From: a phage
Length of the DNA: 45,069 bases
Sequence record: PZ334583.1
Reading direction: 5' to 3' (one strand)
Part shown: positions 1 through 45,069 of the stretch, piece after piece
Layout: each line of letters begins with the position of its first letter
Position numbering within the stretch: the first letter of the stretch is position 1
Program-made: the position numbers and the translations under genes
Notes under the pieces: model-generated
Seen by the model: only the letters and a program-made list of their open reading frames with translations
What the model was told of the DNA's origin: nothing
The model's database searches: none

Positions 1-1899
1 ATGGCAAAGGCTAGAGAATCACAGGCAGAGGCATTAAAGCGGTGGGAAAACCTTAAAGAACTACAAGACACTTTTAAATATACAGCGGAAGGTTTGCTTC
101 TCTTTGCAGATACAGTTATCCATAACTTAATTGCAGGCAACCCTCATCTGATTCGTATGCAGGCTGATATCTTGAAGTTCCTATTTTACGGACACAAGTA
201 CCGCCTCATCGAAGCGCCTCGTGGTATCGCTAAGACAACACTATCAGCAATCTATACGGTATTCCGTATTATTCATGAACCGCATAAGCGTATTATGGTT
301 GTGTCCCAAAACGCCAAGCGAGCAGAGGAAATCGCAGGTTGGGTAGTTAAAATCTTCCGTGGCTTAGACTTTCTTGAGTTTATGCTGCCGGATATCTACG
401 CTGGGGACCGTGCATCCGTTAAGGCGTTTGAGATTCATTACACCCTACGTGGTAGTGATAAGTCTCCTTCTGTATCCTGTTACTCAATCGAAGCAGGTAT
501 GCAGGGTGCTCGTGCTGATATTATTCTAGCGGATGACGTAGAGTCGATGCAGAATGCTCGTACGGCAGCGGGCCGTGCCTTGCTTGAGGAGCTGACTAAG
601 GAGTTTGAATCTATCAACCAGTTTGGGGATATCATTTACCTTGGTACACCTCAGAACGTAAACTCTATCTACAACAACCTACCTGCTCGTGGTTACTCTG
701 TTCGTATCTGGACTGCGCGTTACCCTTCAGTAGAGCAAGAGCAATGTTATGGCGACTTCCTTGCACCTATGATTGTTCAAGATATGAAGGACAACCCAGC
801 ACTTCGCTCAGGGTACGGGTTGGATGGTAATAGTGGTGCACCTTGTGCCCCTGAAATGTATGATGATGAAGTCCTGATTGAGAAGGAAATCTCTCAGGGT
901 GCTGCTAAGTTCCAGCTTCAGTTCATGCTTAACACTCGCATGATGGATGCTGACAGATACCCATTACGCCTGAACAATCTAATCTTCACCTCGTTTGGTA
1001 CAGAGGAAGTCCCTGTGATGCCTACGTGGAGTAATGATTCCATAAACATCATTGGTGATGCACCTAAGTATGGTAACAAGCCTACGGATTTCATGTACAG
1101 ACCTGTAGCTCGCCCATATGAATGGGGTGCTGTCTCCCGCAAGATTATGTATATCGACCCTGCGGGTGGTGGTAAGAACGGAGATGAGACGGGTGTAGCC
1201 ATCGTATTCCTGCACGGCACATTCATTTATGTGTATCAGTGCTTTGGTGTACCTGGCGGATACCGAGAGTCGTCCCTGAATCGCATTGTGCAGGCCGCAA
1301 AGCAGGCGGGTGTTAAAGAGGTATTCATTGAGAAGAACTTTGGTCATGGCGCGTTTGAGGCGGTAATTAAGCCGTACTTTGAACGAGAGTGGCCTGTAAC
1401 TCTGGAAGAGGATTACGCCACCGGACAGAAAGAGTTGCGTATCATTGAGACGCTGGAGCCGCTCATGGCAGCACATAGGCTTATCTTCAATGCAGAGATG
1501 GTGAAGTCAGACTTTGAGTCGGTACAGCACTATCCGCTTGAACTACGCATGTCCTACAGTCTTTTCAATCAAATGTCGAACATAACGATTGAGAAGAACA
1601 GCCTCCGGCACGATGACCGCCTAGACGCCCTGTATGGCGCTATACGGCAATTAACTTCTCAGATAGACTATGACGAGGTTACACGGATTAATCGCCTCAG
1701 AGCGCAGGAGATGCGAGATTACATCCATGCTATGAACACACCTCATCTACGCAGGGCAATGCTATATGGGGATTACGGTACTGAGCGAAGAGTGACCAAC
1801 ACTTCCGTAGCGATGCAGCAGCGAGTTTACGGGCAGAACTACCGAAATAAATCGGCAAGCAGAAATACACTTTCTGCAAGGATTTCAAGGACTTATTAA
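1..1899 (+). CDS. terL: Terminase large subunit (T7 gp19-like); its ATG and first 14 nt are also present at 45056..45069
   Basis: 632-aa ORF; N-terminal sequence recognised as T7-group large terminase; position upstream of the tailspike genes as in SP6/K1-5-type genomes; RBS AAGGAG at 45042..45047. Confidence 0.93.
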   Translation: MAKARESQAEALKRWENLKELQDTFKYTAEGLLLFADTVIHNLIAGNPHLIRMQADILKFLFYGHKYRLIEAPRGIAKTTLSAIYTVFRIIHEPHKRIMVVSQNAKRAEEIAGWVVKIFRGLDFLEFMLPDIYAGDRASVKAFEIHYTLRGSDKSPSVSCYSIEAGMQGARADIILADDVESMQNARTAAGRALLEELTKEFESINQFGDIIYLGTPQNVNSIYNNLPARGYSVRIWTARYPSVEQEQCYGDFLAPMIVQDMKDNPALRSGYGLDGNSGAPCAPEMYDDEVLIEKEISQGAAKFQLQFMLNTRMMDADRYPLRLNNLIFTSFGTEEVPVMPTWSNDSINIIGDAPKYGNKPTDFMYRPVARPYEWGAVSRKIMYIDPAGGGKNGDETGVAIVFLHGTFIYVYQCFGVPGGYRESSLNRIVQAAKQAGVKEVFIEKNFGHGAFEAVIKPYFEREWPVTLEEDYATGQKELRIIETLEPLMAAHRLIFNAEMVKSDFESVQHYPLELRMSYSLFNQMSNITIEKNSLRHDDRLDALYGAIRQLTSQIDYDEVTRINRLRAQEMRDYIHAMNTPHLRRAMLYGDYGTERRVTNTSVAMQQRVYGQNYRNKSASRNTLSARISRTY

Positions 1900-5653: not shown

Positions 5654-7837
5654 ATGCTACAAAGATTAGGGGCAATGTTTGTTCGGTATAAAAATAAAGT
5701 AGGTAATGCTATCGAGCGTACACTACAAAGTAAATTACAGGATGTAGTCAGTGTAAAGGACTATGGCGCCATTGGTGATGGGGTATATCGTTCACTTGGT
5801 GATAAATTTACCACGTTAAGTATCGCACAAGTAGTATACCCACATGCTGAAAGTTTAACTCAATCGCAAGATTGGGCGGCTATTCAGGCTGCACTTAATT
5901 CTCACTCAAAAGTGTACATTCCAGCAGGTAGATACATGCTATCTGATACCATTGAGATGAGCGGAGGTCAAACTCTGCAAGGTGACGGTATTGACTCTTG
6001 GGTTGCAGGTTATGCTGGGTTTGTACAAGATAGGCAAGGCACTCACCTTATAATGGTGGGAGATGGCAATAAGAAGTATACATTAGATCATGTATCTAAC
6101 TTCGATGTAGAAGGTGGTGTCATAGACAACCCAGCTAAGAGTGATTCTTATACTGCCACTGCACCTTCCCCTAATTACTCATTTACTAACTTCACTAATG
6201 CTAACGCCTCTGGTGCACAACGTGCTACATTGAAACCTTTCAGCGTAGCATTACGTTGCACAGGTCACGGTGGTGTTTACCTTCGTGACTTCCGTATTGT
6301 GCCTAATCACAGAGGGCAAGAAGGTTATAAGGATGAGTTGTCAACTGCATTAGGGGACGCATGGGATGTAGGTATTTGGCTGGAGAATACATCTGACTCA
6401 GTGTTATCTTCTGTGCAAGCAGTAGGTTACTGGCGCATTGCAGGTGTTATGAAGACTTGTATACCACAAGATGGTTCCTTTGTTGGTGGAGAGCGTGATA
6501 GGATATACAATTGCACATTACAAGGTTATCGTGGCTTCTTAGCACGTTCGCATGATACTTACCAAGTAGAAGAAGTATCAGGTAACACTGTATCGATTAA
6601 GTGGTCTGCATCTCACACTTTCGAACCTTCTGGTAAAGTTCGTATCCAAGGGAAAGACCGTAGTTATACTAGCCTGTCTGTATCTGGTGACAAATTAGTT
6701 TTCACTGGTATTGACGATGTATCAGATATTAATACCAAGAGCTATGTGAGAGTTTCAGGGTCTTCATTCGGAATGTCTGCTACTCAACTAAATAACACAT
6801 ACATCGCTGCATTAAACCATCATGCTCGCTTGCCAGCGACCTCTAATCTTTTAGATAATAGGTTTTCTACTTCGGCAGCTTGCTATGAAGTTGCAGGTGA
6901 ACCAATTCGTGCCATAAAATTATCTAACTGTACTGTCATTACTTGGGATGACATCTTAGGTATGACTGGTGGTATTAGGGACTTCCAGACGACAGATACT
7001 TACTTCGAGTCTCAGCCTTTCCGTACTTCTGTGCAAGGCTTGGCAAGCACCACACAACCTGCTGGTTCTCGCATGATTGCACTTCGTGGACGTCAAGGTT
7101 CTAAAACTACAGGCTATCAAGCTATCGGTTGTACTTATGGGCCGGGTGTAGACCTAAGCCCTCGTTATGAAAGCGATGTATCTCGTTACACAACTTCCGG
7201 TGGTATGTTCAATCCAAGAGAAGATTTGAACACAACTAAGCAGTTACCAATGAGGCAAGACGCTACTGAGCTATCTTCTACTTCTGGCTTATTCCTTACA
7301 CATGCTGTAGGTGGGAAGGCCTATGTTGGCGCTACCTCTGGTGATGCAACGCTTCAATCTAGAACTGGATCATTGAATATCCAATCAGGACTTCGTGTAC
7401 GCATTGGTGGCACTGATGGTAGTGGTTGGTATATTGCTGACAGTGCTAAGTTGACACCTACTGCTGACAATGCAAGGGCTTGTGGACAACCTAATGGACG
7501 ATGGACTGTTGTCTATGCTGTTAATGGTACAATCCAGACTTCTGATGGTAGATTCAAGGAAATCCTTGAGATTGAACAGGCAGAACTTGATGCTGGTCTT
7601 GAATTATCAGCAAACCTAATTAAGTATCGGTGGAATGGGGAAGATAAAATTCACTTTGGTTGCATAGCACAAGAAGTGATGTTAATCCTGGAGAAACATG
7701 GCCTAAACCCATTACAATATGATATGGTTCAGTATGATGAGGAGGCAGACATCTTTGGGGTAAACTATGCTGAACTCAACAGCTTCTGTATTGCAGCATT
7801 ATCGAGGAAGTTAAATGCCATTAATCAGATCAGTTAA
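5654..7837 (+). CDS. Tailspike 2: pectate-lyase-like beta-helix with C-terminal intramolecular chaperone (peptidase S74) domain
   Basis: 727 aa; RBS AAAGGAGG; VKDYGAIGDG motif (pectate_lyase_3-type beta-helix N-cap); C-terminus TSDGRFKE...IHFGCIAQ...GVNYAEL is the S74 chaperone. Confidence 0.9.
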   Translation: MLQRLGAMFVRYKNKVGNAIERTLQSKLQDVVSVKDYGAIGDGVYRSLGDKFTTLSIAQVVYPHAESLTQSQDWAAIQAALNSHSKVYIPAGRYMLSDTIEMSGGQTLQGDGIDSWVAGYAGFVQDRQGTHLIMVGDGNKKYTLDHVSNFDVEGGVIDNPAKSDSYTATAPSPNYSFTNFTNANASGAQRATLKPFSVALRCTGHGGVYLRDFRIVPNHRGQEGYKDELSTALGDAWDVGIWLENTSDSVLSSVQAVGYWRIAGVMKTCIPQDGSFVGGERDRIYNCTLQGYRGFLARSHDTYQVEEVSGNTVSIKWSASHTFEPSGKVRIQGKDRSYTSLSVSGDKLVFTGIDDVSDINTKSYVRVSGSSFGMSATQLNNTYIAALNHHARLPATSNLLDNRFSTSAACYEVAGEPIRAIKLSNCTVITWDDILGMTGGIRDFQTTDTYFESQPFRTSVQGLASTTQPAGSRMIALRGRQGSKTTGYQAIGCTYGPGVDLSPRYESDVSRYTTSGGMFNPREDLNTTKQLPMRQDATELSSTSGLFLTHAVGGKAYVGATSGDATLQSRTGSLNIQSGLRVRIGGTDGSGWYIADSAKLTPTADNARACGQPNGRWTVVYAVNGTIQTSDGRFKEILEIEQAELDAGLELSANLIKYRWNGEDKIHFGCIAQEVMLILEKHGLNPLQYDMVQYDEEADIFGVNYAELNSFCIAALSRKLNAINQIS

Positions 7838-7964
7838 GCAAAGTGCTGTACGCCAGAACACAGAAGAACCTATTCAATCAGGACGTAACCCTAAGCAGGC
7901 TTATGCCATTGCCAAGGATGTACAACGTCGTGCCATGAAGAAACCTTCTGCATCTTCTGCGTAA
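7815..7964 (+). CDS. Small basic ORF (49 aa) overlapping the tailspike 2 stop
   Basis: ATG 7815 with RBS GAGGAAG 7803..7809; MPLIRSVKQSAVRQNTEEPIQSGRNPKQAYAIAKDVQRRAMKKPSASSA; last ORF before the terminal non-coding region. Confidence 0.35.
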   Translation: MPLIRSVKQSAVRQNTEEPIQSGRNPKQAYAIAKDVQRRAMKKPSASSA

Positions 7965-7976
7965 GCAGGTTAATAT

Positions 7977-8020
7977 CTTAGTGTACACAAGGGCAGACCT
8001 AGGTTTGCTCTTAGTGTATT
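7977..8020. repeat. Right-flank array of CTTAGTG heptamer repeats (SRR-like)
   Basis: cttagtgtacacaagg...ctcttagtgtatttac; same heptamer family as the 8320..8920 array. Confidence 0.5.
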
Positions 8021-8034
8021 TACAATGGAGGTCT

Positions 8035-8050
8035 TATATATATATATATA
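8035..8050. repeat. (TA)8 dinucleotide repeat
   Basis: tatatatatatatata read directly. Confidence 0.9.
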
Positions 8051-8147
8051 CCTATGGAAGCAATAGTAAGTTGCCTATGCTTGTTGATAGGTTTCGTTAT
8101 AGGCTTAATAGTAAATCCTTAGTCCTGTACAAGGGTTAACCAAAGTC

Positions 8148-8162
8148 AAAAAAAAAAAAAAA
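8148..8162. repeat. A15 homopolymer
   Basis: 15 consecutive A read directly, followed by a GC-rich block ctcgccctcgccctcgcc. Confidence 0.9.
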
Positions 8163-8319
8163 TTTGATGTAGGCGTGTGTCAGCTCTCTCGCCCTCGCCC
8201 TCGCCGGGTTGCCCCCATAGGGTGGCCTGAGGGAATCCGTCTTCGACGGGCAGGGCTGATGTGCTCCTTGGATAGTACAAGGGAGGCGGAGGGAACGCCT
8301 AGGGAGGCCTAGGAATGGC

Positions 8320-8920
8320 TTAGTGGTGGACAAGGTGATTGCCTTAGTGAAGCCTCTTAGTGCATTCCTGAGGCCATTCAGGGCGTTTATGAGGTATTGA
8401 CAAGATGGAGGGGGGCGTGGGCTATCTGTTCGTTTCGTTCACTCCGCTTGCGCTACGTTCACTCGCTCACGTGTACCTTAGGCTATTCCTTTATGGATAG
8501 CTTAGGTTATAGCTTAGTGGCCTACCTTAGTTATAACCTTAGTGCATAGCTTAGTATCAGCTTAGTAGTGTACCTTAGTAAGTCTTAGTGTCTTCTCTTA
8601 GTGATTGCACATGCAAGCATGTAAGATGCCATTAGGTCGCGGTCGGTAGACCGCTAAAGAAGGAGAATAGTAATAAGATGCAGTAGGAGGAACACCAGAA
8701 GCCTAGCCAACCTAAGCTATCCTAGCTCTATATCTATTGCTTTTCCTTAGTCTAACACGTTAGACAACCTATCTTTTTCTTAGTGATGGTAACTTAGTGT
8801 TGACAAGATAATCTTAGTGTAATACTATGCATCACGTAGGCGGTGCTGAGGCACCTAGTAGCCAGCTAGTAAGGCATACGAAGAGACTAGCGCTTACATT
8901 GCTCTTTAACAATTTGCTTA
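8320..8920. repeat. Left-flank array of about 20 dispersed CTTAGTG / AGCTTAGT heptamer repeats (SRL-like), interspersed with host-type promoters
   Basis: ggcttagtgg, gccttagtga, cctcttagtg, tagcttaggttatagcttagtggcctaccttagttataaccttagtgcatagcttagtatcagcttagtagtgtaccttagtaagtcttagtgtcttctcttagtg, and further copies at 8780..8920. Confidence 0.7.
8800..8828 (+). promoter_or_regulatory. Candidate host sigma70 early promoter
   Basis: TTGACA (8800..8805), 17-nt spacer, TACTAT (8823..8828); sits in the early leader as the T7 A promoters do. Confidence 0.4.
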
Positions 8921-8971
8921 GTGTAACCTATGTATGCCGTGGTTAACTACTTATTGAATGAGGTATTAACT

Positions 8972-9151
8972 ATGACATTAAACAACCGTGAACTGTCCGT
9001 TATCTTCACTCTGTTGTGCTACATGATTCGTAACAACGAATTACTTACAGACGATGAGTTAGCCTTGTATCACCGCTTTCTTAACGAAGGTTGGACCGAT
9101 ACAGTTAATCAATACCGTAACATGATAGATGAGTTGAGGGAGGGTAAATAA
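8972..9151 (+). CDS. Early hypothetical protein (59 aa)
   Basis: ATG 8972 with GAGG 8 nt upstream; ORF-track frame 8930..9151. Confidence 0.5.
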   Translation: MTLNNRELSVIFTLLCYMIRNNELLTDDELALYHRFLNEGWTDTVNQYRNMIDELREGK

Positions 9152-9375
9152 TGTATCAACATGAGGTATTCTTTGAATCAGCTAGCGAAGCTATTCGCTT
9201 CCGTGATGATATGATGCAAGCTGGCGTAGGTGTTGATGTGTATCACTATTTGATAGATTACGACACTGAATATCACCGAGTTACCTTAGTGACTGAGTAT
9301 GATAACCAAGTCATCACTGAGTACTTAGGCAGTGAAGATTACGATTACGATGAAGTAATCACGACAAATCTCTAA
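9151..9375 (+). CDS. Early small highly acidic protein (74 aa), possible DNA-mimic-type anti-host factor
   Basis: RBS GGGAGGG; Asp/Glu/Tyr-rich (EYDNQVITEYLGSEDYDYDEV); TAATG overlap with the upstream gene. Confidence 0.6.
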   Translation: MYQHEVFFESASEAIRFRDDMMQAGVGVDVYHYLIDYDTEYHRVTLVTEYDNQVITEYLGSEDYDYDEVITTNL

Positions 9376-9766: not shown

Positions 9767-10123
9767 ATGGCTATGTCTAATATGACTTACTCTCAGGTTT
9801 ACAACACCGCTCATGCTGCATTAGTTGAACGTATCTGGAATGATGCTATTGATTGTATTGATAACGCACATGATGCAATCCATGATGCGGCGGATAGTGC
9901 TGTACCAATCTATTATGCTGACATCTTCTCCGTGATGGCGAGTGAAGGAATTGATCATTTCTTCGAAGACTCCGACCTGATGCCAGACACTAAGGATGTA
10001 ACGGTAGTATTGCAAGCCCGTATCTATGAGCAACTCACAATTGATCTATGGGAACGTGTTCAGTATATGATTGTTGAATACATCAACTCCGCCGCATATT
10101 TAGAAGAAAAAGAGGAAGAATAA
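9767..10123 (+). CDS. ocr: Ocr-like DNA-mimic anti-restriction protein (T7 gene 0.3 homolog)
   Basis: MAMSNMTY...[29 protein letters not shown]...[13 protein letters not shown]...[15 protein letters not shown]...EEKEEE closely matches the T7 Ocr sequence as I recall it; acidic; early-region position. Confidence 0.85.
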
Positions 10124-10124
10124 G

Positions 10125-10238
10125 ATGGAAAAGTTATACAACTTTATCTTTTCAGACGGTGTAACCCTGAAGTGTTCCCTACGACTCGCACAAATTCGTG
10201 AGGAAGTACTAGGCACTACATACAAACTATTTAGCTGA
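10125..10238 (+). CDS. Small early ORF (37 aa)
   Basis: ATG 10125 directly after the ocr stop, RBS GAGGAAG; MEKLYNFIFSDGVTLKCSLRLAQIREEVLGTTYKLFS. Confidence 0.35.
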   Translation: MEKLYNFIFSDGVTLKCSLRLAQIREEVLGTTYKLFS

Positions 10239-10251
10239 CACTATAAGAGAA
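10229..10251 (+). promoter_or_regulatory. Variant phage promoter-like sequence (the +1 G is replaced by A)
   Basis: atttagctgacactataagagaa; the -17..-1 region is closer to the SP6 consensus than the main family, but the CTATAG initiation box reads CTATAA. Confidence 0.35.
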
Positions 10252-10314
10252 GGCTTAACAAGGCGTTGCTACGGTAGCGCCTGATTAAACTTTCACTTAC
10301 TAGGAGTTAAGACT

Positions 10315-10542
10315 ATGGATTTAGATAGCATCATTATGGCATTTGCTCTTATTGGCTTAAGCTGGTGCTCCTATCACCTTTACCGTGAGTTCTTATTTGA
10401 TAAAGCTAAACGCAAACTAAGAAAGGAAGGCGGTAATTACCTTTGTGTAAGAGGTGGGCTTGTAGAATACATTGCACCTAACGGCACGGAATGCGCCATT
10501 AGCAAAGATGCATTTATAGAAACGTGGCATTACATCAAGTAA
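10315..10542 (+). CDS. Early small membrane protein (75 aa)
   Basis: RBS AGGAG; N-terminal hydrophobic helix IIMAFALIGLSWCSYHLY. Confidence 0.55.
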   Translation: MDLDSIIMAFALIGLSWCSYHLYREFLFDKAKRKLRKEGGNYLCVRGGLVEYIAPNGTECAISKDAFIETWHYIK

Positions 10543-11553: not shown

Positions 11554-14181
11554 ATGCAAGACCTACACGCTATTCAACTTCAACTTGAAGAAGAAATGTT
11601 TAACGGCGGTATCCGTCGCTTTGAAGCGGACCAACAACGCCAGATTGCATCCGGTAATGAATCAGACACGGCATGGAATCGCCGCTTATTATCCGAGTTA
11701 ATCGCGCCAATGGCTGAAGGTATTCAGGCTTATAAGGAAGAGTACGAAGGCAAGCGCGGTCGTGCACCACGTGCATTGGCTTTCATTAACTGCGTAGAAA
11801 ATGAAGTGGCAGCGTATATCACGATGAAGATCGTAATGGATATGCTTAACACTGATGTAACCTTGCAAGCTATCGCTATGAATGTAGCTGACCGCATCGA
11901 AGACCAAGTGCGCTTCAGTAAACTAGAAGGCCATGCAGCTAAATATTTTGAGAAGGTCAAGAAGTCACTTAAGGCAAGTAAGACTAAATCATATCGCCAT
12001 GCGCACAACGTAGCGGTCGTGGCTGAGAAGTCAGTAGCTGACCGTGACGCTGATTTCTCTCGCTGGGAAGCGTGGCCTAAAGATACCTTGCTACAAATTG
12101 GTATGACCTTGCTAGAAATACTGGAAAATAGTGTATTCTTCAACAGGCAGCCTGTTTTCATCCGCACCTTGCGTACTAATGGCGGCAAACACGGTGTTTA
12201 CTACTTACAGACTAGTGAACACGTTGGCGAGTGGATAACCGCCTTCAAAGAGCACGTAGCGCAACTAAGCCCTGCATATGCACCTTGCGTTATTCCTCCG
12301 CGTCCGTGGGTTTCACCTTTCAACGGTGGGTTTCATACTGAGAAAGTAGCAAGTCGTATCCGCCTTGTTAAAGGCAACCGTGAGCACGTCCGTAAGTTAA
12401 CTAAAAAGCAAATGCCAGCGGTCTATAAGGCTGTTAACGCCTTACAAGCTACTAAGTGGCAGGTTAACAAGGAAGTATTGCAGGTAGTAGAAGATGTTAT
12501 TCGTCTAGACCTCGGTTATGGTGTACCTTCCTTTAAGCCGCTCATTGACCGCGAGAACAAACCAGCTAACCCTGTTCCTCTTGAGTTCCAACACCTGCGA
12601 GGCCGTGAACTGAAAGAAATGCTTACGCCGGAACAATGGCAAGCCTTTATCAACTGGAAAGGTGAATGTACTAAGCTGTACACCGCTGAAACTAAGCGCG
12701 GAAGCAAATCGGCGGCAACCGTTCGCATGGTTGGTCAGGCCCGTAAATATAGCCAGTTCGACGCAATCTACTTCGTGTATGCACTGGACAGCCGCAGCCG
12801 CGTCTACGCGCAATCTAGCACACTCTCACCGCAATCAAATGACTTGGGCAAGGCATTGCTCCGTTTTACCGAAGGGCAGCGTCTTGATAGCGCTGAGGCG
12901 CTTAAGTGGTTTTTGGTGAACGGGGCGAATAACTGGGGTTGGGATAAGAAAACTTTTGACGTGCGCACCGCTAACGTGCTGGATAGCGAATTTCAAGACA
13001 TGTGCCGCGACATTGCAGCCGATCCGCTGACCTTCACTCAATGGGTAAATGCTGATTCCCCTTACGGCTTCCTTGCATGGTGCTTTGAATATGCGCGTTA
13101 TCTGGATGCACTGGATGAAGGCACGCAAGACCAATTCATGACGCACCTACCCGTCCATCAAGACGGTAGTTGCTCTGGTATCCAGCACTATAGCGCGATG
13201 TTACGCGATGAAGTAGGTGCGAAAGCAGTAAACCTTAAGCCTTCTGACTCCCCTCAAGATATTTATGGCGCGGTTGCGCAGGTTGTTATCCAGAAGAATT
13301 ACGCCTACATGAATGCAGACGATGCAGAGACTTTCACATCTGGAAGCGTCACACTTACAGGTGCAGAACTGCGTAGCATGGCTAGTGCGTGGGATATGAT
13401 AGGAATCACTCGCGGCCTGACCAAAAAGCCCGTAATGACACTACCTTATGGCAGCACACGTCTAACCTGCCGTGAGTCAGTGATTGATTATATCGTTGAT
13501 TTAGAAGAAAAAGAGGCCCAACGGGCTATTGCGGAAGGGCGTACCGCCAATCCTGTACACCCTTTTGATAATGACCGTAAGGACAGCCTGACACCTAGCG
13601 CAGCTTATAACTATATGACAGCTTTAATCTGGCCTTCTATTTCGGAAGTGGTTAAAGCTCCTATAGTGGCAATGAAAATGATTCGTCAGCTTGCACGTTT
13701 CGCAGCTAAAAGGAATGAAGGCTTAGAGTACACCTTGCCTACTGGCTTCATCTTGCAACAAAAGATAATGGCGACAGATATGCTCCGCGTATCTACTTGC
13801 TTGATGGGCGAAATCAAGATGAGTCTACAGATTGAAACGGACGTAGTGGATGAAACGGCTATGATGGGCGCTGCTGCCCCTAACTTTGTGCACGGTCATG
13901 ATGCCAGTCACCTTATCTTAACGGTCTGCGACCTTGTTGATAAAGGGATTACATCTATCGCAGTAATTCATGATTCTTTTGGCACTCATGCAGGTCGTAC
14001 CGCAGACCTACGTGATAGTCTAAGGGCAGAAATGGTGAAGATGTATCAAGGCCATAACGCTCTGCAAAGCCTGTTAGATGAGCATGAAGAACGCTGGTTA
14101 GTAGACACCGGAATCCAAGTGCCAGAGCAAGGAGAGTTTGACCTTAACGAAATCTTAGTATCTGACTATTGCTTCGCATAA
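11554..14181 (+). CDS. Single-subunit DNA-dependent RNA polymerase (SP6/T7 family)
   Basis: 875 aa; [26 protein letters not shown]... and the catalytic C-terminus ...HDSFGTHA... recognised as SP6-type RNAP; RBS AGGAG. Confidence 0.97.
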
Positions 14182-14637: not shown

Positions 14638-16626
14638 ATGGCTATTATTCAGAATGTACCGTGTCCTGCCTGTCAAAAGAATGGACATGATATTACTGGC
14701 AACCATCTTATGATATTTGAGGATGGCGCTGGTTACTGTAACCGTGGTCACTTCCATGATAACGGTAAACCTTATTACCACAAGCCGGAAGGTGGCATCG
14801 AGATAACCGAGTTACCTATTACTGGCAATATCAAATATACACCTTCTCAATTCAAAGAAATGGAGAAGGAAGGGAAGATAAGCGACCCTAAATTACGTGC
14901 CATCGCACTAGGTGGTATGCGTATGAAAGACCGTTGGGAGGTCATGAATGAGCAAGAAAGGGCAGACCAAGAAGCAGAGTGGAAGCTTGATGTTGAATGG
15001 TTCCTCACGCTTAAGCGTAAGAACCTTGTTTCCCGACACATTCGCGGCGACATTTGCGCATTGTATGATGTACGTGTCGGACACGATGAAGAGGGTAGAG
15101 TCTCGCGGCATTACTATCCACGCTTCGAGAAAGGTGAGCTAGTAGGAGCTAAGTGTCGCACATTACCTAAAGACTTTAAGTTTGGTCATTTAGGTAAACT
15201 CTTTGGTATGCAAGATCTTTTCGGGATGAATACTTTGTCTCACGTGTTAGACAAGGGAAGACGAAAGGATTGCTTGCTTATTGTGGGTGGGGAACTGGAT
15301 GCGCTAGCAGCGCAGCAGATGCTCCTTGATTCTGCCAAAGGTACTAAGTGGGAAGGACAACCATATCATGTGTGGTCTGTCAACAAGGGCGAGTCTTGCC
15401 TTGAAGAGATAGTGCAGAACCGTGAGCATATCGCCCAATTCAAGAAGATTATATGGGGTTTTGATGGAGATGAGGTAGGGCAGAAGCAGAATCAGCAAGC
15501 GGCTCGCCTGTTTCCTGGCAAATCCTATATCCTTGAATACCCCTCTGGTTGCAAAGATGCTAACAAGGCATTGATGGCTGGCAAGGCTAGAGAGTTTGTA
15601 GATGCATGGTTTAATGCCAAGTCATCTGATGAAGTCTTTGGTAGCCAGATTAAATCTATCGCATCTCAAAGGGATAAGCTCAAGGCTGCACGTCCAGAGC
15701 AAGGACTATCATGGCCTTGGCCTAAGCTGAACAAGGTAACGCTAGGTATTCGTAAGAACCAACTTATCATTGTAGGCGCAGGCTCTGGTGTAGGTAAGAC
15801 TGAGTTCCTTCGTGAAGTAGTTAAGCACCTCATTGAAGAACACGGTGAATCTGTAGGCATCATTTCTACAGAAGACCCGATGGTCAAGGTGTCCCGTGCT
15901 TTTATCGGCAAGTGGATTGATAAGCGTATTGAGTTACCGCCAACCAACGACCCGAAAGAAGATGGATACCGTGAGGTGTTCGACTACACCGAGGAAGAAG
16001 CTAACGCCGCCATTGATTATGTAGCCGATACAGGGAAGCTGTTTGTAGCTGACCTAGAAGGTGACTACTCGATGGAGAAGGTAGAGCAGACCTGCCTTGA
16101 GTTTGAGGCTATGGGTATTTCCAATATCATCATTGATAACTTAACGGGGATTAAATTAGATGAGCGTGCTTTTGGTGGGAAGGTTGGTGCACTTGATGAA
16201 TGCGTCAAGCGGATTGGTACTATCAAAGACCGACACCCGGTTACTATATTCCTTGTATCACACCTTACACGTCCTCCGGCAAACCGGACCCAACACGAAG
16301 AAGGTGGCGAAGTTATCCTTTCTGACTTCCGAGGCTCAGGCGCTATCGGATTCTGGGCATCTTACGCCTTGGGGATTGAGCGTAATACAAGAGCTGAAAC
16401 GCTTGACGAAAGGACTACCACGTACATCTCATGTGTCAAAGACCGCGACCAAGGAATATTTTCCGGTACTCGTATAATGCTTAAAGGTGATATTGCTACT
16501 GGTCGCTTACGTGAACCAGAGCAAAGATCTCGACCGTTTGATACTGGTGCTCCAAAAGAACAAACTGTACCAGAAGAAGTGATTGATAAAGGAGGTTTTA
16601 TTGCTGACGAAGTTGAAGAGTTTTGA
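14638..16626 (+). CDS. DNA primase/helicase (T7 gp4-like) with acidic C-terminal tail ending in Phe
   Basis: N-terminal Cys4 zinc ribbon (CPACQ...CNRGH), Walker A GAGSGVGKTEF, C-terminus ...FIADEVEEF; RBS GGGAG. Confidence 0.95.
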   Translation: MAIIQNVPCPACQKNGHDITGNHLMIFEDGAGYCNRGHFHDNGKPYYHKPEGGIEITELPITGNIKYTPSQFKEMEKEGKISDPKLRAIALGGMRMKDRWEVMNEQERADQEAEWKLDVEWFLTLKRKNLVSRHIRGDICALYDVRVGHDEEGRVSRHYYPRFEKGELVGAKCRTLPKDFKFGHLGKLFGMQDLFGMNTLSHVLDKGRRKDCLLIVGGELDALAAQQMLLDSAKGTKWEGQPYHVWSVNKGESCLEEIVQNREHIAQFKKIIWGFDGDEVGQKQNQQAARLFPGKSYILEYPSGCKDANKALMAGKAREFVDAWFNAKSSDEVFGSQIKSIASQRDKLKAARPEQGLSWPWPKLNKVTLGIRKNQLIIVGAGSGVGKTEFLREVVKHLIEEHGESVGIISTEDPMVKVSRAFIGKWIDKRIELPPTNDPKEDGYREVFDYTEEEANAAIDYVADTGKLFVADLEGDYSMEKVEQTCLEFEAMGISNIIIDNLTGIKLDERAFGGKVGALDECVKRIGTIKDRHPVTIFLVSHLTRPPANRTQHEEGGEVILSDFRGSGAIGFWASYALGIERNTRAETLDERTTTYISCVKDRDQGIFSGTRIMLKGDIATGRLREPEQRSRPFDTGAPKEQTVPEEVIDKGGFIADEVEEF

Positions 16627-17089
16627 GGCAGCAGGCTATACCATCAAGGAAGATGGTACTATCCTTAACCCTAAAGGTGTAATACGCAAGCCCACGCCTT
16701 TAGGAAAGAAAGTAAAGTATTTATATGTAACTTGGAGACATCAAGGTCGAACAGTGACAGAACTTGTACACCGACTGGTTGCTTGTAAGTACATACCCAA
16801 CCCACAGGGTTTACCAGAAGTTCATCATAAAGACTTTAATCCTCTTAATTGTCATAAGGATAATCTTGAATGGACAGATGGGAAAACCAATTGTGAGTAT
16901 AGCTATTCACGAGTAGAGACTGCACTTGCACGAAAGGCTACTTTGCTGTCACCTGATGGAATTAAACATGATGTGTTTAATGTTCGTAAGTTCTGCCGTA
17001 AACATAGCCTCAATCCACCTAGCATATTTGAAGTGCTCAGTGGTAAGCGTAAATCACACAAAGGTTGGGCTATTTACCGGACACTATAG
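16601..17089 (+). CDS. HNH homing-type endonuclease, paralog 1
   Basis: motifs VHHKDFNPLNCHKDNLEW (HNH), paralogous to 44626..45069; strong RBS AAGGAGG 16589..16595; start codon uncertain (TTG 16601 or 16613; ORF-track frame begins at 16583); 3' end contains promoter 17072. Confidence 0.75.
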   Translation: MLTKLKSFEAAGYTIKEDGTILNPKGVIRKPTPLGKKVKYLYVTWRHQGRTVTELVHRLVACKYIPNPQGLPEVHHKDFNPLNCHKDNLEWTDGKTNCEYSYSRVETALARKATLLSPDGIKHDVFNVRKFCRKHSLNPPSIFEVLSGKRKSHKGWAIYRTL

Positions 17090-17094
17090 AAGAG
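17072..17094 (+). promoter_or_regulatory. Phage RNAP promoter embedded in the 3' end of the HNH gene
   Basis: atttaccggacactatagaagag. Confidence 0.8.
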
Positions 17095-17145
17095 ACTAAC
17101 TTCGATGAAGAAAGTGAGTTCTGATTAGTGTATTTATCAGGGCTT

Positions 17146-17161
17146 GTCTCACATGTGAGAC
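17146..17161. repeat. Palindrome GTCTCACATGTGAGAC, copy 3 (extended stem cttgtctcacatgtgagacagg)
   Basis: exact sequence read; 30-bp context nearly identical to the copy at 39815. Confidence 0.9.
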
Positions 17162-17200
17162 AGGCTCTTATTAAGTACATTAAATAACTGGAGATTGATT

Positions 17201-17884
17201 ATGTATAAATTAGTATTGAATGTAGGTGATTATGTTCGTAACATCAATGAAGCCTCACGTCGTTATCGTTGCCGTGGTGTAGTGGATCGTGTAAGTGAGA
17301 ACATGTATCATGTAGAATATGAGGATGGTATTAAGGCTTCTTACCACAAGAAAACAGCACATAAATATCTTGAAAAGGTTGTAGAGATAAACAATCAATG
17401 TAAGTGCATACATGATGAGCTTTGCGATAAGTGTGCTCGCCAGATGCATAAGATGCTATTATACCCTTTTCGCTATTGTGCTGGCCCTCAAACACTAGCA
17501 GAGTACATGGCAGAAAAGAAAACCACACTCAAGAAAGAGCGTCGCAATGTAATCACTGGTAAGACTCAAAGTGAGATGATTAAGCAATGTGGCACTGCAC
17601 TAGGTGTTACGCAGTTTAACACTCGTGCTCTTGGTAAATCCACAGGACAAGCTATGGTAAAGATCGGCGAAGCCATGATGCATCCAAATGTACCTGTACG
17701 AATCAGGGATGTTGACCATGCAATCACAGAACACGGTACGCAACGACGTGTAATTAATAAGCATTTTGCCGACACTATAGAAGGTATTATTCGTAAGCAA
17801 GGGTTGAAAGGTCTTCATATCTTGAATGATGAAGAGTTACTGTACCTCCCTATTGTTACTGAAGAAACCTACGTGAATATCTAA
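17201..17884 (+). CDS. Hypothetical protein (227 aa), Cys-containing N-terminal region
   Basis: ATG 17201 with RBS GGAG; contains internal promoter-like sequence at 17762. Confidence 0.7.
   Translation: MYKLVLNVGDYVRNINEASRRYRCRGVVDRVSENMYHVEYEDGIKASYHKKTAHKYLEKVVEINNQCKCIHDELCDKCARQMHKMLLYPFRYCAGPQTLAEYMAEKKTTLKKERRNVITGKTQSEMIKQCGTALGVTQFNTRALGKSTGQAMVKIGEAMMHPNVPVRIRDVDHAITEHGTQRRVINKHFADTIEGIIRKQGLKGLHILNDEELLYLPIVTEETYVNI
17762..17784 (+). promoter_or_regulatory. Intragenic variant phage promoter-like sequence
   Basis: attttgccgacactatagaaggt; core GACACTATAGAAG intact, upstream specificity region diverged. Confidence 0.4.
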
Positions 17885-17894
17885 GGAGTTAATC

Positions 17895-18113
17895 ATGACT
17901 AAAGTATTAATTTATATGCGTGGACCTCATAAATGCTATGCAGTTGTAGCACCAAATGGTGTTAAGCCCTATAGTACTTCAAAAGGATTGGCATTAATAG
18001 GTGCTAGTAGTAGTGCAAGTTTCCAAATGGAACTTTTTGGTCATTGGAATGAAAGGCAATTCCGTGAGGATTTTAAAGTCATTGGCAGCTTCATGGTGAA
18101 ACATGCAGAATAA
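17895..18113 (+). CDS. Hypothetical protein (72 aa)
   Basis: RBS AAGGAG; ORF track. Confidence 0.55.
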   Translation: MTKVLIYMRGPHKCYAVVAPNGVKPYSTSKGLALIGASSSASFQMELFGHWNERQFREDFKVIGSFMVKHAE

Positions 18114-23969: not shown

Positions 23970-24910
23970 TAGACGCTGACATGTTACCTTACATCGTCGG
24001 GTACACTATCAGTGACATGACTTATGTGCGAGCCACAACTCGTGTTAAGTCAGGGCAAGTCCCCTCAATTAAAGACACACCTGAGTGTAAGCAAGCGTGT
24101 GACCGTGTGAACTCCTTGCTTAACTCTTGGGTGTATGCAGCAGAGTGTGATGCAGCTAAGCTATTCATGACGAAATCAGAAGCTAACTTCCGTGTCCGCC
24201 TCGCATTCACAAAGCCTTATAAGGGTCAACGTAAGACCGAGAAGCCTCCGTTCTTCTATGAATTGCGAGAGCATCTCTTAGAGGTTCATGGTGCAATATT
24301 GGCAGATGGAGAAGAGGCTGATGACCTCATGAGCATTGCACAATGGGACAGCCACCGCCGCTTCCAGCAAGATACAGGTAACGAGTTCCCTATCGGTAGT
24401 CCAGAGCATAAAGCATTCTCTGATACTTGCATCGTTTCCTTAGATAAGGATTTGATGATTGTTCCCGGTTGGCATCTTCAGCCGGGTCAAGAGAAGAAAT
24501 GGGTAGAGCCTATGGGTTGGCTTGAGTTACGCCGTAAGGCTAATGGTCAGGTTAAAGACCTTAAAGGTGCTGGCCTCATGTTTCATTATGCACAGATGAT
24601 TATTGGTGATGATATTGATAACTATGCTGGCATACCTGGACGTGGTGCTAAATACGCCTATGATCTTCTCAAAGATTGTAAGACAGAGAAAGAGTTGTAC
24701 ATGGCAGTGCTTGGTGCTTACAAGGCTAAGTTCGGACATGGACAAGTTAAGATTAAGAATTACCGAGGTGGTTATCGTATCGGCAAGGCTTTTGACCTGA
24801 TGCTCGAATGTGGTCGCCTAGCTCACATGGCAAGATTCAAAGGTGATATATGGCGAGCCGATAAGAACCCAATCTTGTGGGGAGATGATGCGGAATGGTT
24901 AGCAAATTAA
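23882..24910 (+). CDS. 5'-3' exonuclease (T7 gp6-like)
   Basis: ATG 23882 with RBS AAGGAG; IALIDADML and SLDKDLMIVPGW correspond to the T7 gene 6 motifs ILVMDGDWL and SCDKDFKTIP. Confidence 0.88.
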   Translation: MRPNFDFGATVSEDNNLILWPTEGNRIALIDADMLPYIVGYTISDMTYVRATTRVKSGQVPSIKDTPECKQACDRVNSLLNSWVYAAECDAAKLFMTKSEANFRVRLAFTKPYKGQRKTEKPPFFYELREHLLEVHGAILADGEEADDLMSIAQWDSHRRFQQDTGNEFPIGSPEHKAFSDTCIVSLDKDLMIVPGWHLQPGQEKKWVEPMGWLELRRKANGQVKDLKGAGLMFHYAQMIIGDDIDNYAGIPGRGAKYAYDLLKDCKTEKELYMAVLGAYKAKFGHGQVKIKNYRGGYRIGKAFDLMLECGRLAHMARFKGDIWRADKNPILWGDDAEWLAN

Positions 24911-44146: not shown

Positions 44147-44341
44147 ATGATTAACTCCGAACTGGTAGATAGTGGTGTGAAGCTTGCGCCACCTGCACTC
44201 GTATCAGGTGGGTACTTCCTCGGTATCAGTTGGGATAATTGGGTGTTAATAGCAACATTCATTTATACCGTGTTGCAAATTGGGGACTGGTTTTATAATA
44301 AGTTCAAGATTTGGAGGGAGAAGCGTGAGCGTACACAATAA
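44147..44341 (+). CDS. Holin, class II (T7 gp17.5-like)
   Basis: 64 aa; RBS AAGGAGG; FIYTVLQIGDWFYNKF corresponds to IAYTVVQIGAKVVDKM of T7 gp17.5; basic C-terminus. Confidence 0.8.
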   Translation: MINSELVDSGVKLAPPALVSGGYFLGISWDNWVLIATFIYTVLQIGDWFYNKFKIWREKRERTQ

Positions 44342-44624
44342 ACATGCAGCTACAGAGGATGAGGTTGGCATTCTGCATGGTGCTATTACCAAAATCTTCA
44401 ATAAGAAAGCACAGGCAATACTGGACACTATAGAAGAAGACCCTGATGCAGCATTACATTTAGTGCCTGGTAAGGACATTGGTGCAATGTGTAAGTGGGT
44501 TCTTGATAACGGCATTACCGCCACACCTGCTGCACAGCAGGAAGAGTCCAAGTTATCTAAGCGCCTCAAGGCTATCCGAGAGGCATCCAGTGGCAAGATT
44601 ATTCAGTTTACAAAAGAGGAGTGA
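44325..44624 (+). CDS. Putative terminase small subunit (gp18-like)
   Basis: about 99 aa from GTG 44325 (RBS GGAGGG 44313..44318); immediately upstream of terL as in T7; contains a promoter-like sequence. Confidence 0.5.
   Translation: MSVHNKHAATEDEVGILHGAITKIFNKKAQAILDTIEEDPDAALHLVPGKDIGAMCKWVLDNGITATPAAQQEESKLSKRLKAIREASSGKIIQFTKEE
44416..44438 (+). promoter_or_regulatory. Near-consensus phage promoter embedded in the small-terminase coding sequence
   Basis: caatactggacactatagaagaa; would drive the HNH gene and terL. Confidence 0.6.
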
Positions 44625-44625
44625 T

Positions 44626-45069
44626 ATGCATAGATGGTGTGAATCTCAAGGTTATACCATCTTACCTTCTGGTGTCATCCTTTCAAAGGGTGGCACCCCT
44701 CTCAAACCATTCAAGGCGGGTAGGGGTTATTTAGCAGTTAAAATTAAAAATAAAGAAGGTAAATGGCGTAATGTCTATGTTCATCAATTAGTGGCTTATA
44801 AGTATTTACCTAAAACTAATAATGAAGTAAACCACAAAGACGGCGATAAGCACAACAATGATGTTAGCAACTTGGAGTGGGTAACAAGAAGCGAGAATAA
44901 CTATTTAAAATGCAATGGAAATGATAGGAGTGCCTTAAATAGCTATTTAGCAAGATTAAAAGATTGCTTCTTGCAAGGTAAGGGTGTAGCAGAAACCGCT
45001 AGACTTACTGGTAAAAGTGAACCAAGAGTTTCTTCTCTCTTTAAGGAGTGGCGAAATGGCAAAGGCTAG
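44626..45069 (+). CDS. HNH homing-type endonuclease, paralog 2, inserted between the terminase subunit genes
   Basis: 147 aa from ATG 44626 (RBS AGAGGAG); HNH motif EVNHKDGDKHNNDVSNLEW; paralogous to 16601..17089; stop TAG at 45067..45069 overlaps the terL start. Confidence 0.8.
   Translation: MHRWCESQGYTILPSGVILSKGGTPLKPFKAGRGYLAVKIKNKEGKWRNVYVHQLVAYKYLPKTNNEVNHKDGDKHNNDVSNLEWVTRSENNYLKCNGNDRSALNSYLARLKDCFLQGKGVAETARLTGKSEPRVSSLFKEWRNGKG

Follow-up and report, generated by a model that had tools for sequence, protein, structure and literature searches.

The genome described here carries two genes for HNH endonucleases, each lying close to a copy of a phage promoter, which raises the question of whether the promoters had any part in the arrival of these genes. 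The window, meaning the whole stretch of 45,069 nt that was analysed, is a complete, permuted genome of a Vectrevirus (K1-5/SP6-like) coliphage, and all the features discussed below lie on its + strand. A sequence-only reading had proposed that both HNH genes are physically coupled to promoter copies, which might be the homing target, have been carried along, or have been duplicated by the insertion. The explanation favoured here, to which we give a probability of roughly three in four, is that two independent free-standing I-HmuI-like HNH genes occupy two sporadic Vectrevirus sites, that the promoters are resident, and that the diverged tracts linked to the two genes are their probable targets.

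The first gene, HNH1 (16601..17089), begins at a TTG and stops at a TAG (17087-17089), and is predicted to be a free-standing homing endonuclease gene of the I-HmuI-like HNH type. The second, HNH2 (44626..45069), runs from an ATG to a TAG and is predicted to be a free-standing homing endonuclease gene of the HNH_3 type. No other HNH_3-type ORFs occur within the window. Both products match the profile phrog_59 (E = 2.7e-29 for HNH1 and 1.3e-29 for HNH2), and these profile matches place an HNH nuclease domain of the beta-beta-alpha-metal kind in each. Compared with I-HmuI (PDB 1U3E), HNH1 gives an alignment with E = 2.6e-8 that runs to near both C-termini, and HNH2 is matched over its N-terminal and HNH region. 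Against Pfam HNH_3, HNH2 scores 43.4 bits, over the curated cutoff of 24.8, whereas HNH1 scores 19.6 bits; since this falls under the cutoff, the activity of HNH1 is not assured. Residues H76, N88 and N97 are invariant in an alignment of the HNH1 orthologs. Each gene has translation signals of its own, namely the Shine-Dalgarno AAGGAGG (16589-16595) ahead of TTG 16601 for HNH1 and GAGGAG ahead of ATG 44626 for HNH2, and the genes flanking them keep their own stop and start codons. The two had been called paralogs, a term that fits their N-terminal and HNH parts, as the N-terminal 85 residues share ~40% identity (E = 2e-12 in a protein comparison), but not their C-terminal DNA-binding parts, which are different and unrelated.

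Among close relatives, both genes are sporadic. HNH1 has orthologs in PDP21P3, ULINTec6, NIC06P3, BP12B and GRNsp03, which are 77-97% identical in aligned amino acids (81% for ULINTec6 and 79% for BP12B by tblastn), and the insert is covered in about 4 of 104 matching records. The nearest allele, that of PDP21P3, reaches 97%; the allele in the window is new at the sequence level. HNH2 is present in about 18 of the 82 matching records, at 96-98% nucleotide identity, with VEc3 gp46 among its annotated orthologs; it is missing from K1-5, LL11, ULINTec6, T205P4 and most of the other matching records. Each gene is present or absent at one fixed position, and where it is absent the empty site is precise. 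A scan of IMG/VR with HNH1 returned BP12B itself as its only close relative and added no further junctions. Among the papers covered by a literature search, none dealt with the HNH1 or HNH2 junctions or with the positions of K1-5 promoters. The view of both as free-standing genes of the homing endonuclease type thus stands, and both are best described as ordinary members of that class, whose endonuclease activity and homing we infer from their sequences.

The promoters follow a different pattern, being constant where the HNH genes are not. The one at HNH1, ATTTACCGGACACTATAGAAGAG (17072..17094), is a perfect match to a 23-bp consensus (-17 to +6) of the kind used by SP6/K1-5-type single-subunit RNA polymerases. 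By analogy with SP6 promoters, its +1 was taken as the G of TATAG, which puts the inferred start at 17089, the last base of the HNH1 stop codon. Seven sites in the window have three or fewer mismatches to this sequence, against none expected by chance, and 12 sites with a conserved core were found, all on the + strand; besides the one at 17072-17094, two of the other 11 are perfect. Exactly 12 sites, at the same positions, are observed in each of eight whole Vectrevirus genomes, which carry between zero and three HNH genes. The helicase-tail promoter lies at the same place in the HNH-less phages K1-5, VEc3, LI10P3, T205P4, EC120, LL11 and SP6, as well as in PM93, and has a degenerate form in Era103. 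Its sequence changes with the polymerase of the genus, reading ATTTACCGG in Vectrevirus, ATTTAGGTG and AATTAGGTG in BP12B and SP6, respectively, and AATTAGAGACC in PM93. The BP12B sites match the SP6 promoter consensus.

The promoter-like site near HNH2, CAATACTGGACACTATAGAAGAA (44416..44438, inferred +1 at 44433), is embedded, as had been noticed, in the small-terminase gene; it has four mismatches to the consensus, all peripheral, and is read L-D-T-I-E-E in the terS frame. It is identical in the HNH2-less phages K1-5, LL11 and T205P4, and is absent from the terS genes of BP12B (AAVEE) and Era103 (GMIEE). Related phages without the HNH genes therefore have the same promoters in the same places, which is the first half of what the sequence-only reading had named as grounds for its own refutation, and both duplication of a promoter by the insertion and its carriage with the HNH gene are excluded by the empty sites and the constant count of 12. 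It follows from these alignments that both promoters are resident parts of a fixed 12-site set which would have been in place before the HNH genes arrived.

At the first site, the gene that receives the insert encodes the primase/helicase (14638..16626), recognized by Pfam DnaB_C and Toprim_2, by the translation of its tail, and by alignments with K1-5, VEc3 and SP6. In these alignments, the last ~58 codons differ from those of the HNH-less relatives, and the protein ends in a replacement acidic tail, ...IADEVEEF*. The first 26 nt of HNH1 (16601-16626) double, in another frame, as codons of this tail, and an acidic ...EF* helicase end overlapping the HNH start has been re-created in all three HNH1-linked alleles. 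Upstream of the overlap lies a diverged block of the helicase 3' end (16459..16600), inherited with HNH1, that shares ~58% identity with T205P4, K1-5 and LL11, while the preceding 750 nt are 96-100% identical. Read along the genome against HNH-less relatives, the site shows ~58% identity over 16459-16573, then a gap of 498 nt, and from 17072 on no mismatch to T205P4 across ~137 nt. Within the phage collection, the HNH1-linked block was matched at >75% identity only in PDP21P3, which also has HNH1, and in none of the HNH-less phages.

The downstream side of HNH1 records what was lost. The gene ends, as the sequence-only reading had observed, inside the consensus promoter, which supplies its last five codons and its stop codon, the latter at promoter positions -2 to +1. 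The segment 17072..17124 matches T205P4 without a mismatch, and T205P4 reads it as helicase codons; in the window it is what remains of the ancestral C-terminal tail of the helicase (..DTIEETNFDEESEF*), now untranslated 5' UTR past the promoter. It is followed by a long interrupted hairpin (17125..17183) ahead of the next gene (ATG 17201), within its 5' UTR, also found in SP6 and Era103 with wobble-compatible changes; the fold of 17089-17205 has an MFE of -35.5 kcal/mol (z = -4.3). A palindrome mentioned in the earlier reading falls within this hairpin. A scan of 16400-17400 for sigma-70 promoters and intrinsic terminators gave no match.

To account for this anatomy, it is proposed that HNH1 entered the genome directly ahead of the helicase-tail promoter, so that its ORF would run into the promoter and take the TAG found there as its stop. 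This junction is shared between genera: the HNH1 ortholog of BP12B ends in an SP6-type promoter and uses a different TAG of that promoter as its stop. The first 26 nt of the gene would supply, out of frame, the substitute acidic ...EEF C-terminus of the helicase, with the old tail turned into an untranslated leader; a function for that tail is suggested by analogy with T7 gp4. The adjacent promoter would be unable to express HNH1, because its inferred start is the last base of the gene, and transcription presumably occurs within the helicase message, from promoters further upstream. A promoter in the last codons of a gene is not unusual here, as, of the 12 sites in the window, six show overlap with ORFs and four with a stop codon. 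The apparent coupling of promoters and HNH genes is mostly the ordinary outcome of insertion into a tightly packed genome. The possibility that the HNH1 cassette moved recently from Zindervirus to Vectrevirus was also considered and rejected, with HNH1 77% and the helicase block 73% identical between the window and BP12B, against 81-86% for the backbone. HNH1 and its linked block thus diverge more than the helicase backbone, and HNH1 is therefore old at this site.

The exact position of the junction invites another explanation, in which HNH1 would recognize or cleave the promoter itself, or the promoter combined with the unique helicase-tail sequence to its left, and its insertion would be a classic homing event. 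On its right, the insert meets the 23-bp promoter exactly at the promoter's first base, in Vectrevirus and Zindervirus alike; HNH genes also show a modest enrichment beside promoters, and in Era103 three HNH genes are flanked by promoters. I-HmuI, to which HNH1 aligns over its whole length, makes its nick a few bases away from its insertion site, and most of its binding is to the downstream side. However, the promoter beside HNH1 is intact and perfect, and 11 more sites, two of them perfect, lie in the same genome; an enzyme that recognized promoters would turn on its own carrier. What separates HNH-plus from HNH-minus alleles is sequence upstream of the promoter, no promoter lies near seven of the clade's 12 distinct HNH sites, and the C-terminal DNA-binding parts of HNH1 and HNH2 are not alike. 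HNH2, moreover, was inserted 190 nt away from its supposed promoter, with its diverged tract on the far side. A role of the promoter as homing target is accordingly disfavoured on the sequence comparisons, and we regard it as quite improbable.

The second site has a different architecture. The gene terS, for the small terminase subunit (44325..44624, GTG start), is identified by Pfam DNA_Packaging_2 (E = 3e-16) and by homology to K1-5 gp42, and the ATG of HNH2 at 44626 lies one base past its stop. Two elements of terL lie in the 3' end of HNH2, its Shine-Dalgarno (45043-45048) and its first 14 nt. These 14 nt, ATGGCAAAGGCTAG (45056..45069), are a copy of window positions 1-14 and form the true terL start, overlapping the HNH2 stop. 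Relatives with HNH2 have a single copy of this stretch, in a span of 1350 nt against 1364 nt in the window, and 45056-45069 is for that reason a duplication at the window's ends. The overlap of HNH2 with the terL start, asserted earlier, is accordingly real only once the window is circularised; in the linear record, the last 14 nt simply repeat the first 14. In HNH-less K1-5, terS and terL overlap by one base, a comparison that bears out the statement that HNH2 splits the terS-terL pair, whose two genes normally overlap. The position of HNH2 directly downstream of a promoter survives only in part: it does lie downstream, but 193 nt separate the inferred +1 from its ATG and the promoter is part of another gene, so that the relation is one of proximity, not coupling.

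Divergence at this site is confined to the 5' end of terL. Nucleotides 1-95 of terL (window 1..95) share ~70% identity with K1-5, LL11, ULINTec6 and T205P4, whereas the sequence on either side is 92-100% identical per 50-nt bin to K1-5, LL11 and T205P4. ULINTec6 is more diverged overall than these three. The profile therefore runs from a promoter bin with 50 of 50 positions identical, through the HNH2 gap and the ~70% stretch, to 98-100% beyond it. The proposal is that HNH2 entered precisely at the junction, after the terS stop and before the terL ATG, where it would have taken over a Shine-Dalgarno of terS and provided a new one for terL.

This location, with apparent translational coupling to both neighbours, might suggest that HNH2 is no selfish element but a packaging accessory working with terS and terL, as are the HNH proteins encoded beside the terminase genes of HK97-like cos phages. 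HNH2 lies beside terminase genes, as expected of an HK97 gp74-like packaging factor, but it lacks the conservation that would be expected in all group members that use the terminase: it is missing from K1-5, LL11, ULINTec6, T205P4 and most matching records, in which terS overlaps terL. The phage mutPK1A2 has a different, truncated HNH gene (45% identity) at the terS-terL junction, which looks like turnover of homing endonucleases, and Era103, a related phage of the Molineuxvirinae, is annotated with direct terminal repeats rather than cos ends. An accessory role is thus rejected on distribution, as highly unlikely.

What the two sites have in common is a diverged tract of ~100 nt in a neighbouring essential gene, linked to HNH1 at the helicase 3' end, upstream of the insert, and to HNH2 at the terL 5' end, downstream of it. 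Flanking tracts of this kind are consistent with co-conversion or target immunity, and the sequences point to 16459..16600 and 1..95 as candidate homing-target or immunity regions, more likely to play that part than the promoters. Under the preferred explanation, the enzymes probably cut HNH-less genomes within these tracts, where the carrier would be immune, and the genes may spread by repair of double-strand breaks or nicks during mixed infections. The diverged tracts could instead reflect relaxed constraint; HNH-less phages, too, vary most among themselves in the helicase tail block, where K1-5 and VEc3 share ~85% identity as judged by eye.

The association of HNH genes with promoters was also assessed across the Molineuxvirinae. 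In five annotated genomes, six of 12 HNH genes are promoter-adjacent compared with 46 of 254 other genes (Fisher p = 0.015). When distinct sites are counted instead, 5 of 12 qualify, compared with 18% among other genes (binomial p = 0.05). Promoters may accordingly have some influence on the places where HNH genes land. The addition of PM93 contributed one more HNH site, without an adjacent promoter, and the test was stopped there, the remaining candidate sites being non-independent. In a further explanation, the promoter is not cut but would act as a short conserved recombination boundary, or patch of homology, at which HNH cassettes and neighbouring modules are exchanged. The foreign block stops exactly at 17071/17072. 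The HNH1 alleles of the window and PDP21P3, 97% identical in amino acids, are joined to two different downstream alleles, a K1-5-type relic in the window and a VEc3-type relic with a 162-nt ORF in PDP21P3. Similarity of BP12B to SP6 and to the window is lost a few bases past the promoter. Nuclease genes are reported in a published survey at boundaries of genetic exchange between phages (PMC10448857). Nevertheless, a stretch that does not vary among Vectrevirus genomes offers no means of placing breakpoints within it, the sharp edge could be no more than the end of the inserted DNA, and selection to keep a native promoter would give the same picture. Such exchange is a tentative possibility; it is compatible with the preferred explanation and would add to it.

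A broader claim, that conserved phage-polymerase promoters are preferred HNH landing sites or exchange boundaries in SP6-like phages (Molineuxvirinae), appears unlikely. Such a preference may arise in two ways, either because the enzymes read part of the promoter or because the promoter is a portable homology patch. If true, it would explain why the HNH1 junction falls exactly at promoter -17 in two genera, why one HNH1 allele occurs with two downstream alleles, and why five of 12 sites abut a promoter.

Under the favoured explanation of two independent sporadic genes, the attractive association of promoters and HNH genes is mostly incidental, with the promoters as fixed backbone and the HNH genes as ordinary sporadic selfish elements. 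HNH1 would illustrate a low-cost entry of a selfish gene into the 3' end of an essential helicase gene, the acidic C-terminus being re-encoded out of frame and the stop borrowed. The helicase 3' end and the terL 5' end offer two concrete candidate target tracts in therapeutic K1-5-like coliphages, and such elements could bias the inheritance of markers in phage cocktails.

Among known systems, I-HmuI of SPO1 (PDB 1U3E, phrog_59) has the same organisation of N-terminal and HNH domains as HNH1 and HNH2, and shares its C-terminal DNA-binding region with HNH1 up to a ...HKGW/Y motif near the C-terminus, whereas the C-terminus of HNH2 resembles a sigma region-4 or HTH_23 helix-turn-helix. A group I intron carries the I-HmuI gene, whereas HNH1 and HNH2 are free-standing, between or overlapping other genes. 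Annotated HNH genes of Vectrevirus and Zindervirus (VEc3 gp46, AAPEc6, KMB47, ULINTec6 UCR91822 and BP12B gp11) occupy the same sites. The terminase-associated HNH genes of HK97-like phages likewise lie beside terS and terL, but HNH2 is unconserved in its clade and resides in a genome type with terminal repeats. In T4-type phages, the free-standing homing endonuclease genes of the Seg and Mob families encode enzymes that cut an essential gene next to them, and a co-converted flanking tract is inherited along with the endonuclease gene. HNH1 and HNH2 resemble them in occurring sporadically, at a fixed position between genes or at a gene's end, with precise empty sites, and in their linkage to a short diverged tract of an adjacent essential gene. 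The catalytic family differs, HNH_3 here and GIY-YIG in Seg, and HNH1, unlike the Seg and Mob genes, replaces the C-terminal tail of the helicase through an out-of-frame overlap and takes its stop codon from a promoter.

The promoters of this genome form a fixed set. Seven sites lie within 3 mismatches of the 23-mer promoter ATTTACCGGACACTATAGAAGAG at 17072-17094, against none in shuffled sequence, and a core-based rule gives 12 sites, all in the same orientation. Exactly 12 sites were found in 8/8 whole Vectrevirus genomes, which carry 0, 1, 2 or 3 HNH genes; since this count is constant whatever the HNH content, the suggestion that the promoter was carried along or duplicated by the insertions is excluded. 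If SP6 promoters are taken as the guide, with the G of TATAG as +1, the start for 17072-17094 falls at 17089, the final base of the stop codon of HNH1 (16601-17089), so this promoter would be unable to transcribe that gene. It is normal in this genome for a gene to end in a promoter: 6 of the 12 promoters overlap ORFs and 4 a stop codon. The two coding-embedded promoters share one reading frame and both encode D-T-I-E-E (17080-17094 within the helicase tail in relatives lacking HNH1; 44424-44438 in the small terminase gene, terS).

Megablast queries with 16000-18000 and with the terS-HNH2-terL junction each matched about 80-100 records from Vectrevirus (K1-5-like; Autographiviridae, Molineuxvirinae) and some from Zindervirus (SP6-like). 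The same promoter stands in the same place in HNH-less K1-5, VEc3, LI10P3, T205P4 and EC120, where it forms primase/helicase codons (...VPDLPDTIEETxFDEESEF, then stop). The helicase tail also contains an SP6-type promoter in SP6 (1905-1935, here and below in the numbering of the sequence compared), an own version in Proteus phage PM93 (about 9854-9880) and a degenerate copy in Era103 (9861-9883). The promoter thus occupies the last primase/helicase codons across four Molineuxvirinae genera, each matching the genus-specific sequence apart from the degenerate Era103 copy, and from its presence in Vectrevirus, SP6, PM93 and Era103 it is ancestral to the subfamily. The physical coupling of HNH1 to a promoter, proposed in the sequence-only reading, is therefore real only as adjacency: the promoter was there before the gene and is present in relatives lacking it.

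Across 750 nt upstream of a diverged block, the window is 96-100% identical to T205P4, K1-5 and LL11; identity to these phages falls to about 58% at 16459-16573, a 498-nt insertion follows, and from 17072 about 137 nt match T205P4 at every position. As the identity profile drops at 16459 and resumes at 17072, the foreign block is 16459-17071, with its right edge at the promoter's first base. It supplies a new helicase end (...IADEVEEF, stop 16624-16626), and HNH1, preceded by AAGGAGG (16589-16595), runs from a TTG at 16601, 26 nt ahead of that stop and in a different frame, to the TAG at 17087-17089. The old tail, 17072-17124, is kept without mismatch as an untranslated leader. The two further HNH1-linked alleles likewise give the helicase a new end, each with another sequence: ...GADETQEF in Salmonella phage BP12B and ...LNEETSEF in NIC06P3 and ULINTec6. 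In T7, gp4 has an acidic C-terminal tail whose last residue is Phe and which makes contact with DNA polymerase; with gp4 as model, we infer that the insertion may be tolerated because an acidic ...EF tail is restored.

Downstream of the promoter, the leader of the next gene (ATG 17201) holds a long interrupted hairpin at 17125-17183 (fold of 17089-17205: MFE -35.5 kcal/mol, z = -4.3), kept in SP6 with wobble-compatible changes and in a shorter version in Era103; this element may act in RNase III-type processing or in stabilisation. An ORF of roughly 144-162 nt, whose product looks like a small membrane protein, directly follows the helicase tail in VEc3 (1127-1288), PDP21P3, NIC06P3 and ULINTec6; the window (between 17124 and 17125) and K1-5 lack it, and it is a second indel polymorphism at this junction. 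In ULINTec6 a further HNH gene (7674-8174), which the record annotates as a phage intron, interrupts the primase/helicase gene (6404-9170); with the HNH1 ortholog this makes two HNH genes in or at that gene.

The BP12B ortholog of HNH1 (79% by tblastn, 82% by alignment) sits at the same junction, GGTTGGACT abutting ATTTA. There the promoter is of SP6 type, ATTTAGGTGACACTATAG, and the ortholog stops at the TAG of ATTTAGG, not that of TATAG. HNH1 (77% identical) and the linked helicase block (73%) have diverged further between the window and BP12B than the helicase backbone has (81-86%), which makes HNH1 an old occupant of this site; recent inter-genus import is ruled out by the same values. The window's helicase-block allele exceeds 75% identity only in PDP21P3, which also carries HNH1. 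That HNH1 is 97% identical, but it adjoins another downstream allele, a VEc3-type relic of old helicase-tail codons plus the 162-nt ORF, which indicates recombination at or near the promoter boundary.

At the second site, HNH2 (44626-45069) lies exactly between terS (Pfam DNA_Packaging_2) and terL in the window and VEc3, and the claim that it splits this pair holds: the genes overlap by one base (TGATG) in HNH2-less K1-5 and LL11. The HNH2 ATG begins one base past the terS stop, its last 14 nt are terL's first 14, and AAGGAG at 45043-45048 provides a new Shine-Dalgarno for terL. The window is a complete, permuted genome with its first base at the terL ATG, and its last 14 nt, ATGGCAAAGGCTAG at 45056-45069, copy positions 1-14. 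HNH2-carrying relatives have a single copy (megablast and alignment; span 1350 nt versus 1364 nt in the window), so the repeat is a duplication at the window's end; in the real genome the HNH2 stop codon falls in terL codons 4-5. The repeat appears to have arisen artificially when the genome was circularised or re-oriented at the start of terL, the place where this gene and the HNH2 stop overlap.

Coupling of HNH2 to a promoter is not meaningful. The terS site (44416-44438; 4 mismatches to consensus, at the edges only) has its presumed +1 193 nt 5' of the HNH2 ATG, and its 50-nt bin is 50/50 identical to HNH2-less K1-5, LL11 and T205P4. Against the same phages terL nt 1-95 show about 70% identity and the sequence beyond 98-100%, so the HNH2-linked diverged tract lies on the far side from the promoter. 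The terS site appears to be specific to Vectrevirus, its DTIEE being AAVEE in BP12B and GMIEE in Era103, which suggests a real promoter, though one independent of HNH2. In mutPK1A2 the terS-terL junction (794-1224) is occupied by another HNH ORF, truncated to 110 aa and 45% identical to HNH2, with a 37-aa ORF after it; it may be a decaying endonuclease gene.

These patterns make it unlikely that the promoter is the target of the HNH enzymes: the HNH1-side copy is intact, 11 more sites (2 of them perfect) exist in the same genome, the C-terminal DNA-binding regions of HNH1 and HNH2 differ, and the differences between HNH-plus and HNH-minus alleles fall upstream of the promoter in the case of the helicase tail, and on the insert's far side from it at terS-terL. 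A possible HNH1 target is unique helicase sequence with the promoter's left edge, split by the insertion. In five annotated genomes (K1-5, LL11, ULINTec6, BP12B and Era103), 6/12 HNH genes against 46/254 other genes were promoter-adjacent, defined as a promoter ≤60 nt upstream or at the gene 3' end (Fisher p = 0.015, the counts not being independent); by distinct HNH sites, with PM93 added, it was 5/12 (binomial p = 0.05). This enrichment is weak and post hoc, and other Vectrevirus HNH sites are separated from the nearest promoter by 155 nt to 4 kb. We propose as candidate explanation that these compact genomes have few gaps between non-overlapping genes that tolerate insertion, and that junctions with promoters are among them; that promoters are genuine landing sites or exchange boundaries for HNH genes seems rather improbable. 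Three HNH genes of Era103 (757-1280, 9861-10407 and 13655-14016) each abut a phage promoter, 40-45 nt upstream in two and overlapping the stop codon in one. PDP21P3 has a weak HNH-like ORF (24354-24842; E = 2.6e-6 to LL11 gp17) at a site empty in the window.

The two HNH proteins are homologous, as had been proposed, with 40% identity over the first 85 residues, and the window holds no further ORF of their type. Both match phrog_59 and I-HmuI (PDB 1U3E). The alignment of HNH1 with I-HmuI extends to its C-terminal ...HKGW motif, whereas the HNH2 C-terminus resembles a sigma region-4/HTH_23 helix-turn-helix. The genes are ordinary free-standing HNH homing endonuclease genes of sporadic distribution, and close relatives already have annotated examples of the kind (VEc3 gp46, ULINTec6 UCR91822); the re-encoding of the helicase tail by overlap and the stop codon taken from a promoter are neat touches in a known kind of system, not a new one.
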